From positions 1-56,064 of the forward strand of contig CANFCB010000004.1 in the NCBI GenBank assembly GCA_947445025.1: a DNA stretch of 56,064 bases. The letters run 5' to 3'. A program made the translations under genes and the position numbers. A model generated the notes under the pieces. That model did not search any database and was not told the origin of the DNA. It worked only from the letters and a program-made list of their open reading frames with translations. Of this stretch, positions 23,009-26,405 are shown in pieces. The DNA is from Myxococcales bacterium (lineage in GTDB: Bacteria > Myxococcota > UBA727 > JABDBI01). Every line of letters begins with the position of its first letter. Position 1 is the first letter of the stretch.

Positions 23009-23076
23009 CTCTCCACTTTTTCCAGGCGGCGAGCACATCGCCACGTACCACTTCTTGCGCATAGCCGGTTGTTGCC
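23009..23076 (-). pseudogene. Duplicate 3' end of the larC-like gene (ATTGYAQEVVRGDVLAAWKKWR), truncated by IS3
   Basis: 62/68 nt identical to 25187-25254; all six differences are synonymous. Confidence 0.9.
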
Positions 23077-23176
23077 GAGGCCAAATTCAAATAAACCTGT
23101 GGTACCGGGCGATAGACTTGACCTTCACAAATCGAGACAATCTCTCTTAAAAGAACTGACCGTAAAGCTGCTTCTC

Positions 23177-25120
23177 TTAAAATACAGAAACAGCACGAGC
23201 GAAACCAGTCAATATTCTGGCTGCTCCAGTAAACAATCCTTTCTCAGATAATGCTGCTTTTTTACCAGTACTCCCAGCAGTATTGGATTTGCCAGCACTG
23301 CTTGAAGAGGCTGCTGGCACCGATCTTCTACCCGCAGCTGCTGCTGTAGTCAAAGAAGATGAAAGCGCAGCTCCGCCAACTCCACCGCCACCAGGGGGTG
23401 GTGGAGGAGGCCCACGACGAAACATTTTTATTAGATCTGCAGCAGTGTCAGATAACTTATTTTCCACTCTCTTTTTGCTATCTTCTTCATCTTCATCACT
23501 TGTAAGCTGGGTTGGCTGCTGCAACGCAATATAGTGATTTGCCCGATGCGCTATCGCTGCGACTACAGGGCCATCGGCATTCACATGAGCAATCCAAATT
23601 GGTGGCGCCCCCTGCAATCCAAATGTATTTCCAGCGCCATGATGAATAAACGCATTGTCGCCAAGAGTAAAAACAAGAATTTCCTGGCCATTTAGCAACC
23701 CCCAAAGGTTAAGTTCAAAGTCACCTGTCCAAAGAGGAGCAACTCCTGGCTGTGGCTGCATTGCTGTAAGCCAGGCCTCATAATTAGCAAACTGACCAGC
23801 CGCGGCTAAATCAGCAAAAAGCCCAATAAATTGTGTATGCAACGGATTAGCCTCATCAGCCATAACCACAGCAACCTGAGCCAGAAAAGTCTGGCGCGTA
23901 ACAGTGCCCGGCTGGTATGCCCTGTCCAGCGCATGAAAAGCACAGTCGCCGTCACTATCAGTCCATGTGGAAGTCACCACAGTGCTACGAATACCGCGAA
24001 TCGTTGCTTGAGTAATAGATAAAATGCTCTCTCGGTTTGCAGCACTGAGATGTGAATCTTTGCTATTAATGCTACTAGAACGAACCGGAGACAGACCCCG
24101 TCCTGGCTTTGAGGGCCGTTGAGATTGACTTTCTTCCGACCGAGCATGCGCATCCGGCCACTTGTATTCTTGGACTATTGGAAAGTGGTCTAGTTCCATT
24201 TCATAAATAGCTTTTGAGGCTACCCCGTACACTTGTCTAGCATTGTCGCAATATGAGCCAGCCTTAGTTGTTGGCCCATCTTCCCTGTTATAGAGTGGCT
24301 TGAAGCCAGCCTTCTCAATACAATCTGGGTCTGCATTCCAATCCCCACCATCGATCACATAATCAACTTCCTCAAGTTCAAGCTCCTCAAACCTCTCTAT
24401 TAGAGATACATATTCCTTCAATCTTTCGTTTAGGGGCTTCTTTAGGCTTAGGTGCACTCCCACAACCGCAATAGTTTTAGGCGCTACACCTTCGCGTTCC
24501 TGCAGGTAGCAGGTAACATGACGAAAATGAGAAGCGACTAGTTTGCTCTCTGGTTTTAGCTCAAATCTCTGAGAGTTCCACGCCAATGCAAAATAGTCTC
24601 TAGTGCCTGGAAAGTTGTCCTGAATGCACACGAGTGGGCTGTCCGGAAGTTTAAGGTTTCTTATTGACTCAGAACACCAAGCAATATCTACGTTGCATCC
24701 ACTGAGAAACCCATTGACCGCCCGCCCAAGCTTTGGTGGAGAGCTTAACACAACATGCCGATTGGATGCGTCGAGATTCATAGCAGCGAATGTCAAATGC
24801 ATATCACCTTCTTCGTATCGGCTCTTAGGAGCAATATCCACTTTTTTTCTCAAACAATATTGAGAACATGCATCGATGTCAGCAGAGGAACACTTCCGTT
24901 TTTCATGATGCTGATTCATATTACTACGGCTTGAAAAGATAACTTGACAGTCTGGACAGCGAGCCGCCTCGTCGCCAGGACACTTGTGAGCTCTCAATGC
25001 TATCTGTGTCGCAAAATCATTGTGGCACTCGGTACAGTTGAACTTCCCAGCCTGAGCAACTGACGATAAAAAGAGTATTTGAAAAACGAAAAAACCAAAC
25101 CACTGCATAGCTATAACCAT
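23177..25120 (-). CDS. Secreted multidomain protein: 2 zinc fingers + EEP (exo/endonuclease-phosphatase) domain + OTU-like cysteine protease + polyproline tail
   Basis: Signal peptide ...VAQA; CTECHNDF..L.AHKC and CPDCQVIF...HH; EEP motifs AMNL, DIAWCSE, GVHL, GDWN, CDN, DHFP; OTU motifs DGDCAFHAL, WTGDFEL, NHY; PPPPPP. Confidence 0.8.
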   Translation of the reverse strand: MVIAMQWFGFFVFQILFLSSVAQAGKFNCTECHNDFATQIALRAHKCPGDEAARCPDCQVIFSSRSNMNQHHEKRKCSSADIDACSQYCLRKKVDIAPKSRYEEGDMHLTFAAMNLDASNRHVVLSSPPKLGRAVNGFLSGCNVDIAWCSESIRNLKLPDSPLVCIQDNFPGTRDYFALAWNSQRFELKPESKLVASHFRHVTCYLQEREGVAPKTIAVVGVHLSLKKPLNERLKEYVSLIERFEELELEEVDYVIDGGDWNADPDCIEKAGFKPLYNREDGPTTKAGSYCDNARQVYGVASKAIYEMELDHFPIVQEYKWPDAHARSEESQSQRPSKPGRGLSPVRSSSINSKDSHLSAANRESILSITQATIRGIRSTVVTSTWTDSDGDCAFHALDRAYQPGTVTRQTFLAQVAVVMADEANPLHTQFIGLFADLAAAGQFANYEAWLTAMQPQPGVAPLWTGDFELNLWGLLNGQEILVFTLGDNAFIHHGAGNTFGLQGAPPIWIAHVNADGPVVAAIAHRANHYIALQQPTQLTSDEDEEDSKKRVENKLSDTAADLIKMFRRGPPPPPPGGGGVGGAALSSSLTTAAAAGRRSVPAASSSSAGKSNTAGSTGKKAALSEKGLFTGAARILTGFARAVSVF

Positions 25121-25181
25121 TAATCAACAATATGAAATTTATAGGACTAGAATGTATTCCCATTTTTTATGATTACAACTT

Positions 25182-26405
25182 CTACTCTCTCCACTTTTTC
25201 CAAGCAGCCAGCACATCGCCGCGTACCACTTCTTGTGCATACCCGGTTGTTGCCACAATTGCTGCAAGATCAGCCAGCACCGGTTCTGCTCTCAAAATTT
25301 TATCACCCAAAAGCCATTCGACCACGCCGCATTGTTGCAGTTTTTGACCTCGACCAAAGGGTATGCTCACGGTTCGATGCAATAATCCATGTTGCTCCAC
25401 AAAAGACGTCAGTACTTCAGGTGCTTCACCGGTCACTAAAAGCGCGGTGATTATTTTTTCAGCATCCCCATGAGATGCAAGCAAACTTAAATGCGTCTGC
25501 GGGTAAGCCCCCTGCTCCATCACCTGACCTGTTAAAATCATGCGCGCGCCCATATTGGTCACACGTCTGATTAAATCTTGGGTATCAACTCTTTGTCCGA
25601 GCAAGCACTGGGCTTGGATCAAAGGCAGCACTTTAGCCTCTGCAGAGGGACCTAAAATAGCCCGCGTGGCAATCATTGTTGGCTCACACCACAGGGCGCG
25701 TGCCCACATAGCCAACTCAGAATGATCTTGAGTAACTCCCGTGCCGCTTTGCAACAGAAGGCTTTCACCGCGCGGTCCAAAATGCGACACCACGCTTTTT
25801 AATAACGCCAATGCCACAGGTTCAGCCCACGGCGCTGGCCACTCTTGCTCATAAGAAGGCAACCCTTCCACTAATGCCAAGCTCCAGCCTCGAACATCTA
25901 CATCACTAAAAGCATGAGGCAGCAATAACGGCGGCCACGACAATGGCAACCGCGAACAACTCACTTCCAAGGGATTCGCTACCTGGATCAAAACACAAAA
26001 GGTCACCACATGGCAAAAAATATAAACCAGCAATTCTCCCCTTAATTGAATAGCCATCCCGTCTTGGCCGCATGACTTTTGCAGACTTTTACCCAACAAT
26101 TCTAAGGTTTTTTGGATCAACGCAGAAGAAATCGGATGCAACTGAGCCTGGCGCATATGAAGCAAGAGGTCATTTAACGTGGCACTTTCACCCAAAGGAC
26201 AAGATTCATAGATAAAATCAAGAGTTGCGCCAAAGATCTTCCCTTTTATTTCTTTGCCTTGAGTGGGAACAATATGCCCAATCCCTAGATACCGAAAAGC
26301 CTGAACAACAGGTTCCAAAGGCAAACCTAAATCCAGTATTGCACTATTTAAAAGCTCTGCCTTGCATCCTTGCGTCACATCAAAATGGATGATTCCAGTG
26401 GCCAT
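25182..26405 (-). CDS. Divergent LarC/DUF111-like protein
   Basis: N-term IIHFDVTQGCKAELLNSAILDLG and C-term ILRAEPVLADLAAIVATTG parallel LarC termini; the His-rich/HFHEVG core is absent. Confidence 0.6.
   Translation of the reverse strand: MATGIIHFDVTQGCKAELLNSAILDLGLPLEPVVQAFRYLGIGHIVPTQGKEIKGKIFGATLDFIYESCPLGESATLNDLLLHMRQAQLHPISSALIQKTLELLGKSLQKSCGQDGMAIQLRGELLVYIFCHVVTFCVLIQVANPLEVSCSRLPLSWPPLLLPHAFSDVDVRGWSLALVEGLPSYEQEWPAPWAEPVALALLKSVVSHFGPRGESLLLQSGTGVTQDHSELAMWARALWCEPTMIATRAILGPSAEAKVLPLIQAQCLLGQRVDTQDLIRRVTNMGARMILTGQVMEQGAYPQTHLSLLASHGDAEKIITALLVTGEAPEVLTSFVEQHGLLHRTVSIPFGRGQKLQQCGVVEWLLGDKILRAEPVLADLAAIVATTGYAQEVVRGDVLAAWKKWRE

Follow-up and report, generated by a model that had tools for sequence, protein, structure and literature searches.

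The Myxococcales bacterium of assembly GCA_947445025.1 carries, on the 56,064-nt stretch of contig CANFCB010000004.1 analyzed here (the window), a gene for a putative effector lodged directly behind a larC-like gene and bracketed by two copies of that gene's 3' end. Both the observation and the insertion are real; the former is non-random, and the latter is specific to this lineage. The two copies differ at silent sites only, a pattern that a local duplication with subsequent decay would not readily produce, and therefore at least one of them appears to have been shaped in a foreign gene. We favor, at a probability of roughly 55%, a scenario in which the effector is foreign DNA that recombined by means of the conserved larC-like end as a homologous anchor; that one allele is foreign, how the DNA recombined and in what order things happened are what we infer from the layout. 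The source assembly (G000) is a metagenome bin of 1,085,086 nt in 43 contigs and is 73% complete. It is compared below with G001, a 99% complete genome from the one further species that represents the genus in the comparison set.

Read on the minus strand, the locus consists of the larC-like gene, in which copy 1 of the repeat is followed by GAG TAG, then 61 nt, a 647-aa open reading frame (ORF), 100 nt and copy 2 (Table 1). The last 68 nt of the larC-like gene before its final codon are copy 1. The two copies form a direct repeat identical at 62 of 68 positions and spaced 2178 nt from start to start; a repeat-finding tool returned the same coordinates and identity that had been given in an earlier note on this DNA, made from the sequence alone. 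All six differences fall on third codon positions and are silent in the larC-like frame (GGG/GGC, GCA/GCG, CGC/CGT, CTG/CTC and GCT/GCC twice; as base pairs G/C, A/G, C/T, G/C, T/C and T/C). They are exactly the six codon pairs that the earlier note had listed, and both copies encode the same 22 residues, ATTGYAQEVVRGDVLAAWKKWR. Copy 2 carries no nonsense, frameshift or replacement change. The longest identical block between the copies is 16 nt, no similarity was detected beyond the 68 nt on the upstream side even with a 6-nt word search, and BLAST of the whole 1.09-Mb assembly, including the far side of the neighboring RND transporter block, found no third copy of the gene end. A diversity-generating retroelement was considered for this locus and rejected: the differences are not confined to adenines, and no reverse-transcriptase domain was found in the six ORFs tested (21247-26847).

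About 24% of single changes in the 68-nt stretch are silent. Six random changes were all silent in 0.005-0.03% of simulations (0.02% analytically). Under duplication followed by decay, if changes in the working copy must be silent and those in the spare copy may be of any kind, the probability is ~0.0035; this is a hand calculation, (32/82)^6, built on the 24% silent fraction, which gives a per-difference silent probability of ~32/82. The argument of the earlier note that random decay would not have hit silent sites alone is thus supported for random changes (~2e-4) as well as for duplication and decay. The copies differ from each other at 6 positions and from the G001 gene end at 8 (copy 1) and 9 (copy 2) positions in 66 nt, with 5 of the differences from G001 common to both. 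Given five shared against six mutual differences, the copies parted after the split of G000 and G001, at roughly half that depth. Judged from these comparisons, the copies diverged long before the remnant ceased to be translated, and at least one of them probably derives from the working gene end of another lineage. Copy 2 lies on the side of the ancestral neighbors, as expected of a displaced resident end.

By sequence comparison, the corresponding locus of G001 is an empty site and the insertion is specific to the lineage of G000. In G001 the larC-like stop is followed by 44 nt, a small ORF, an outer-membrane efflux protein and an RND transporter. Homology to the window ends at 25191 and picks up again at 21649, and G001 keeps one copy of the repeat, at the end of its larC-like gene. 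An insertion relative to the sister species, for which the earlier note had proposed to look for empty sites in close genomes, is thereby supported. Of 19 larC-like loci of relatives, 18 have no repeat within 1.5 kb on either side. The stretch occurs in lake metagenomes of 20 runs from 10 studies. The present arrangement was also found outside the source assembly, in contigs (Logan assemblies) of four runs from four other studies, which run nearly without differences from the window and at even depth. The junction of insertion sequence (IS), copy 2 and effector is reproduced in run X2 (record 19, 21483-23470) and run X10 (record 2, 22694-23153), and the junction of effector, copy 1 and larC-like gene in run X5 (record 30, 24805-25334) and run X2 (record 21). 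No contig of the four runs skips the insert, and none shows an excision or empty-site joint, although contigs can miss rare forms. In run X12, a low-depth contig from another study tracks the effector to 25086 and then continues into unrelated sequence; 30 loose letters of this contig have no match in the assembly or in any fetched locus with up to 5 mismatches allowed. The insert's GC content (0.45-0.50, against ~0.44 for the contigs) is uninformative, and scans for promoters and terminators gave counts no better than those from shuffled sequence.

Under the scenario we favor, the incoming piece would have come from a related lineage and would have carried its own working larC-like 3' end, then the effector, then a scrap of a fabZ gene. 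It would have paired along the larC-like gene, possibly well upstream of the 68 nt, with a seamless in-frame join on one side. On the other side the join would have been illegitimate, at a point that precedes the end of the resident gene by 68 nt, its last codon and the stop. The larC-like gene would have stayed intact, and the resident end would have become an untranslated remnant lying 2.1 kb further downstream. An IS3-family element, flanked on its far side by a scrap of a PhoH gene, would later have replaced the last codon of the remnant, its stop and a few bases beyond. The best match among known processes is homology-facilitated illegitimate recombination (HFIR), or a Campbell-type entry of a circle with one gene-end copy; neither would need a dedicated integrase. 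As HFIR would have it, one junction lies within homology, running in frame through copy 1, and the other, at copy 2, abuts the fabZ scrap without larC-like homology. Since the longest identity is 16 nt, entry of a circle through the 68 nt alone is unlikely, and the anchor would have to extend further upstream. The end-joining protein Ku was not found in G000 or G001. The earlier note had held that the incoming DNA brought its own allele of the 3' end, as integrative elements do at att sites. This interpretation is partly supported: its core, two gene ends shaped by selection and DNA from a relative, appears right, but the att analogy does not. Of the two routes that it had offered, the second, by recombination with a related strain's DNA, is the best fit, and a minimal cassette mobilised in trans fits poorly.

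The borders of the cargo bear on how it was joined. The fabZ-like scrap lies on the strand opposite to the effector, within the 100-nt spacer that separates the stop of the effector from copy 2. It matches the genome's own fabZ (C1:57547-58012) at 37/45 nt and at a colinear 14/16 nt, and tblastn recovers KPVVPGDRLDL and EAKFK from it in different frames. The resident fabZ loci are intact in both G000 and G001, in the order lpxD-fabZ-lysS. Because the cargo ends in fabZ-like pseudogene scrap, it was likely cut from another genomic context by illegitimate joining. Cargo consisting of the effector alone, as described in the earlier note, is correct in that there is a single ORF, but the spacer also holds this pseudogene fragment.

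On its other side, copy 2 stops after AGA G and the IS begins at the next base, so the last codon and stop are missing. The IS resembles the IS3 family in its orfA and orfB, the A-run at their overlap, the DDE transposase with rve domain and the terminal inverted repeats, which are imperfect (TGAAGTGCACCCC / TACAATGCACCCC). It differs in that no 3-4-bp target-site duplication was found (the flanks are TTT and CTC) and in that scraps of two different genes lie at its ends. Its left end was set by a fragment on contig C42 of G001, and the assembly contains a single copy of the IS. The PhoH scrap sits between the IS and the RND block, and its source, a PIN-PhoH gene named by Pfam PhoH and PIN_4, lies 5 kb away. 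This scrap may mark where a tandem duplication collapsed, or it may have been brought along with the IS. As G001-type sequence resumes only beyond the IS and the PhoH scrap, the IS marks a later rearrangement rather than the arrival of the cargo. The absence of a recombinase reported in the earlier note holds inside the bracket, where the 2110-nt insert has one ORF only and no transposase or integrase domain, but the DDE transposase next to it had been overlooked. Beyond the rearranged junction, the four-fold-site divergence between G000 and G001 in the genes of the RND block is 0.39, 0.32 and 0.15, whereas the median for 41 gene pairs is 0.82. The tract of low divergence runs from ~17200 to 21650; values are typical in the transporter's last 130 codons, and also in the larC-like gene (0.93). 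Such low divergence suggests that recombination between the lineages recently reached the RND block, in a tract ending at the rearranged junction.

The same layout recurs elsewhere in the genome. Self-comparison of G000 gave 53 same-contig repeat pairs, and the 12 that were inspected are direct pairs 0.2-2.5 kb apart. In half of these (6/12, the larC-like locus included) a gene 3' end, usually through its stop, is repeated 0.5-2.2 kb downstream past one or two ORFs; gene-end duplications elsewhere, for which the earlier note had proposed a search of the genome against itself, thus number five among the inspected pairs. The cargo is a HigB/HigA-like toxin-antitoxin pair at the murG locus, a 152-aa orphan ORF behind a gene of the isocitrate/isopropylmalate-dehydrogenase family (Iso_dh) and a 161-aa ankyrin-repeat protein behind an EEP gene. 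Contigs C3 and C31 hold two less clear gene-end cases, and on C5 a stretch of 51 nt just past a stop codon is duplicated. The remaining inspected pairs are three tandem paralogues and pairs on C8 (complex) and C22 (different geometry), which were set aside. The recurrent loci are C6:33558-34902, C11:11538-12344, C12:31292-31965, C3:58515-59482, C31:9593-11166 and C5:20176-21633. At the younger loci the repeats are identical or nearly so (45/45 for Iso_dh, 51/51 for C5 and 76/78 for EEP). The spare copy at Iso_dh keeps 6 more nt of homology, in which its two differences are silent.

In G001 the murG and Iso_dh loci are cleanly empty, and at the EEP locus it has neither the gene nor the cargo; multi-copy sequence or the ends of contigs blocked the comparison of C3, C31 and C5. 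Elsewhere, G001 holds a copy of the toxin-antitoxin pair that is 92% identical to the cargo, while the flanks of the cargo are at 79%, and no repeat of at least 25 nt brackets that copy. At its own Iso_dh gene, G001 has an 83-nt duplication (97.6% identical) made up of the gene end and 47 nt downstream (C25:97925-98007 and 99653-99735; L041 1233-1315 / 2961-3043). The two genes that it brackets have a four-fold divergence between the species of 0.18-0.27, against the median of 0.82, and G000 retains an 18-nt vestige of the outer 83-nt copy at its Iso_dh locus. This suggests stacked insertions at the Iso_dh gene end, and cargo appears to move between the two lineages. No common motif at the cargo ends was seen by eye across seven loci. 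A palindromic element of ~80-120 nt resembling a miniature inverted-repeat transposable element (MITE) (CGTCATTGCGAACGAAG ... CTTCGTTCGCAATGACG) is multi-copy in both species, with copies at 4098-4175 of the window, at C11:11421-11538 and C6:31523-31605 and on C13, C41, C12 and C22 of G000, and on several contigs of G001; one copy adjoins the displaced gene end at the Iso_dh locus.

Several observations weigh against foreign DNA anchored on the larC-like end. The locus was chosen for its pattern and several loci were inspected, so that the real weight of the silent-only evidence is somewhat lower. Silent and replacement differences at the other loci stand at 8:6 nt, which is not significantly skewed, and the allele argument therefore rests mainly on the larC-like locus. 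As an outgroup, G001 marks neither copy clearly as the resident one: at the six sites it matches copy 1 three times, copy 2 twice and neither once, and overall the distances are 8 versus 9. In the search for a donor lineage, a first scan of metagenomes, which used the larC-like protein, turned up no relative, and a second with the alignment of G000 and G001 found two loci, 34% and 61% identical (the latter cut off in its 5' half), neither of which shows 3' context. Protein searches for a full-length effector elsewhere returned only its own copy. The longest identity of 16 nt is short for RecA-type crossing-over inside 68 nt, and no divergence step marking a crossover is found along the larC-like gene or PhoH. 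The ComEC competence channel, common in non-competent bacteria, is encoded in G001 and was not seen in the 73%-complete G000.

The copies could also have arisen in situ, by a long target duplication that left identical copies of 70-odd nt at birth (for example through staggered breaks and fill-in) and differences that came later. We think this unlikely, though three points favor it: the younger loci of the same genome have identical or nearly identical copies, the published repeats of such insertions are also near-identical in the part of the survey at hand (PMC2853133), and the two metagenome scans found no donor. Against it, six of six differences would have to be silent (P ~0.0035), at least three changes would fall on the untranslated copy with G001 as the outgroup, all of them silent, and the two differences in the extra 6 nt of the Iso_dh spare copy are silent again. 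The improbability of the silent-only pattern would be avoided if a local duplication had been followed by overwriting of the spare copy, with the tract that carries the RND block, coming from a relative with an empty site, replacing copy 2 by a working allele. The low divergence of ~17200-21650 (0.15-0.39 versus 0.82) and the end of that tract beside the junction of copy 2 agree with such an event. However, the distance of copy 2 from G001 is no smaller than that of copy 1 (9 versus 8 differences in 66 nt), and the IS and PhoH scrap now separate the tract from copy 2, so that continuity cannot be shown; overwriting is accordingly an improbable origin.

It is highly improbable that the 68 nt are the attL and attR of a minimal integrative cassette moved in trans by a tyrosine or serine recombinase located elsewhere or since lost. 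The order of gene, replacement end, cargo and displaced end does resemble phage or island integration, the GGCAACAACCGG motif at the inner edge has exact matches in the window at the two copies alone (and 4 matches when one mismatch is allowed, versus 0.19 expected), and the assembly is only 73% complete. Nevertheless, no tyrosine or serine recombinase is present in 21400-26600, and a genome-wide search of that assembly, which took up the suggestion of the earlier note that one might be encoded elsewhere, gave one weak tyrosine-recombinase match (PF00589), conserved in G001, and no serine recombinase (PF00239). Several genes that are unrelated to one another show the same layout, with cargo that is likewise unrelated and ends that share no motif, which argues against a site-specific enzyme. 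Nor is an excised circle junction, also suggested in that note, present in the contigs of the four runs, within their limits for rare forms. With no such recombinase in or beside the bracket and an identity block of only 16 nt, the comparison to att sites is not supported. A second larC-like gene, once complete and since eroded to its final 68 nt, would account for selection on both copies and is nonetheless barely credible: in G001 the larC-like gene is single and the locus shows no trace of another, upstream of the 68 nt of copy 2 there is no similarity but the fabZ scrap and effector instead, 18 of 19 relatives' loci are without the repeat, and no tandem larC-like genes were found in 40 relatives searched. 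The genome being a metagenome bin of 43 contigs, mis-assembly of two strains, which the earlier note had named among the findings that would overturn it, has to be considered as well; it is effectively excluded by the recurrence of both junctions in assemblies from four other studies, and an exact match of 16 nt is too short to mislead an assembler.

HFIR, the process that best matches the entry of foreign DNA at the larC-like end, has been demonstrated experimentally in transformable bacteria; here it is read from an uncultured organism. The work is said to be that of de Vries and Wackernagel in 2002, Prudhomme and colleagues in 2002 and Meier and Wackernagel in 2003, and displacement of C-termini at Rhs loci was reportedly described by Jackson and colleagues in 2009. 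Insertions with long target duplication were reportedly described by Nobusato and colleagues of the Kobayashi group in 2000. Phages and islands integrate in the 3' ends of tRNA or protein genes and bring a replacement end. The present locus is like theirs in its intact gene, cargo and displaced partial end and in homology that ends near the gene end, but it differs in having no integrase, no core longer than 16 nt, a tiny insert and many target genes. In HFIR, to the extent that the available part of the literature describes it (PMC3240628), a homologous anchor pairs at one end, the other end joins illegitimately and no recombinase is involved, as we propose here. HFIR has also been proposed for the displacement of effector-immunity modules of the type VI secretion system (PMC5361080, in the portion available). 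As at this locus, new effector DNA is there placed behind conserved upstream sequence, with older material downstream and with orphaned 3' pieces and stacked arrays; in the cases described in that portion, the anchor belongs to the toxin system and what is displaced are toxin tips or immunity genes, whereas here ends of ordinary housekeeping genes serve as anchors and the displaced piece measures just a few dozen bases.

The closest known kind is the insertion with long target duplication, for which the part of the survey at hand gives restriction-modification cargo, repeats of 46-423 bp, some of them at gene 3' ends, mostly transformable species and a mechanism that is unknown (PMC2853133). 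Such insertions are short and without mobile-element genes, have repeats longer than 30 bp, and correspond to one copy and no insert in a related genome; here the insert is 2110 nt (less than 20 kb), the flanks align in G001 and the repeat is 68 nt. The published cases, as described there, were screened for restriction-modification cargo, whereas an effector, a toxin-antitoxin pair, an ankyrin protein and an orphan ORF are found here. A further difference from the cases described is that the copies differ at silent sites only, pointing to two lineages. The larC-like locus is thus placed within this known kind.

The locus appears to exemplify the gain of an effector without phage, plasmid or integrase, in the small genome of an uncultured lake-water bacterium that is rich in eukaryote-like genes. 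Docking on the conserved end of an ordinary gene would let the gene survive while a short remnant keeps the record. Such remnants can be read as fossils that mark the resident side and the age of the event and, by way of silent differences, an origin in a related lineage. Events of several ages in one genome, together with the empty sites of a sister species, offer a natural series for studying the mechanism of long target duplication. More tentatively, and with considerable doubt, gene ends may be universal docking sites for integrase-free exchange of cassettes among related lineages, leaving stacked insertions and silent-only allele remnants. Single genes or small blocks would then travel with one copy of a conserved housekeeping gene end and be taken up at that end by the recombination machinery of the host. 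If so, this would be a general route for gaining effector, toxin-antitoxin and defense genes beyond this lineage, and a mechanism for long target duplication insertions.

The cargo protein begins with a hydrophobic leader or signal peptide and is probably secreted. Residues 27-74 contain two C2H2 zinc fingers, below the Pfam cut-off but with zinc-finger matches in the PDB at E 1.7e-5. A putative EEP-fold domain follows at residues ~105-320: the structural model is of low confidence here (pLDDT 59.5), Foldseek matches it to TDP2 at E 7e-8, the Pfam EEP match (E 0.19) is below the cut-off, and the motifs GDxN, DN and HFP are invariant in four sequences. The OTU-fold domain at residues ~355-540 (DGDC...NHY) is modeled at pLDDT 84 and matches A20, DUBA and viral OTUs in Foldseek (probability 1.00, E 8e-5 to 1e-3). 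In an alignment of 13 sequences DGDC is in the consensus and N-H-Y is invariant. With this fold and with the catalytic Cys (D-x-x-C; Cys393) and His (His529, near the C-terminal strand) in place, the domain is a predicted OTU cysteine protease. An exhaustive search of 1.84 billion representatives gave 22 proteins with matches at E<=0.001, each through one module, and a word-indexed search gave the effector itself and one protein sharing the OTU module. In 20 other genomes of the family that were searched, G001 being included in the negative result, no full-length effector was found; matches to the OTU module only occur in 2 of the 20, not beside the larC-like gene. By its domain content the protein would be a shuffled, eukaryote-like one, for which putative effector is a fair label. 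The larC-like ORF itself matches the nickel-insertion (LarC) family of Pfam weakly, above the threshold.

Table 1. Features of the larC-like locus and its surroundings (window positions).
Feature	Position	Strand	Content or basis
larC-like gene, 407 aa, intact	25182..26405	-	ORF; Pfam Ni_insertion PF01969, 26.2 bits vs cut-off 22.1; G001 orthologue, 80% protein identity
Repeat copy 1, in-gene	25187..25254	-	encodes ATTGYAQEVVRGDVLAAWKKWR, then GAG TAG
Insert, 2110 nt, missing from G001	23077..25186	-	homology break; effector protein not found in G001
Cargo ORF, 647 aa	23177..25120	-	leader, zinc fingers, putative EEP, OTU, Pro/Gly-rich stretch, C-terminal tail
Decayed fabZ-like fragment, ~aa 101-126 of FabZ, frame-breaking indels	23077..23156	+	matches to the genome's own fabZ
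Repeat copy 2, displaced spare gene end	23009..23076	-	same 22 residues; without last codon and stop
IS3-family insertion sequence, 1333 bp	21676..23008	-	DDE transposase with 'integrase core' domain; Pfam HTH_Tnp_1, rve, HTH_21, rve_3
IS orfA	22647-22934	-	A-run at overlap with orfB
IS orfB	21730-22659	-	A-run at overlap with orfA
25-nt scrap of PIN-PhoH gene	21651..21675	+	24/25 identical to 16584-16608; one replacement change
Resident downstream neighbors as in G001	16813..21650	-	synteny; Pfam ACR_tran, OEP
Small ORF	21247-21570	-	synteny with G001
Outer-membrane efflux protein	19921-21180	-	Pfam OEP
RND transporter	16813-19911	-	Pfam ACR_tran

Elsewhere in the window, a repeat family of ~500 nt occurs at 55489-55992 and recurs, at 78-97% identity, at many contig ends (C9, C11, C12, C14, C25, C28 and C29), where it probably breaks the assembly. 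The syntenic locus of G001 lacks an insertion at 28838-30410, a 320-aa ORF that has a signal-like leader and matches no Pfam family, and no bracketing repeat of at least 14 nt was found around it. The stretches 31627-31940 and 33309-33622 belong to two adjacent genes of ~550 aa that are tandem paralogues, 71% identical over 318 nt, and these genes are paired in G001 too.

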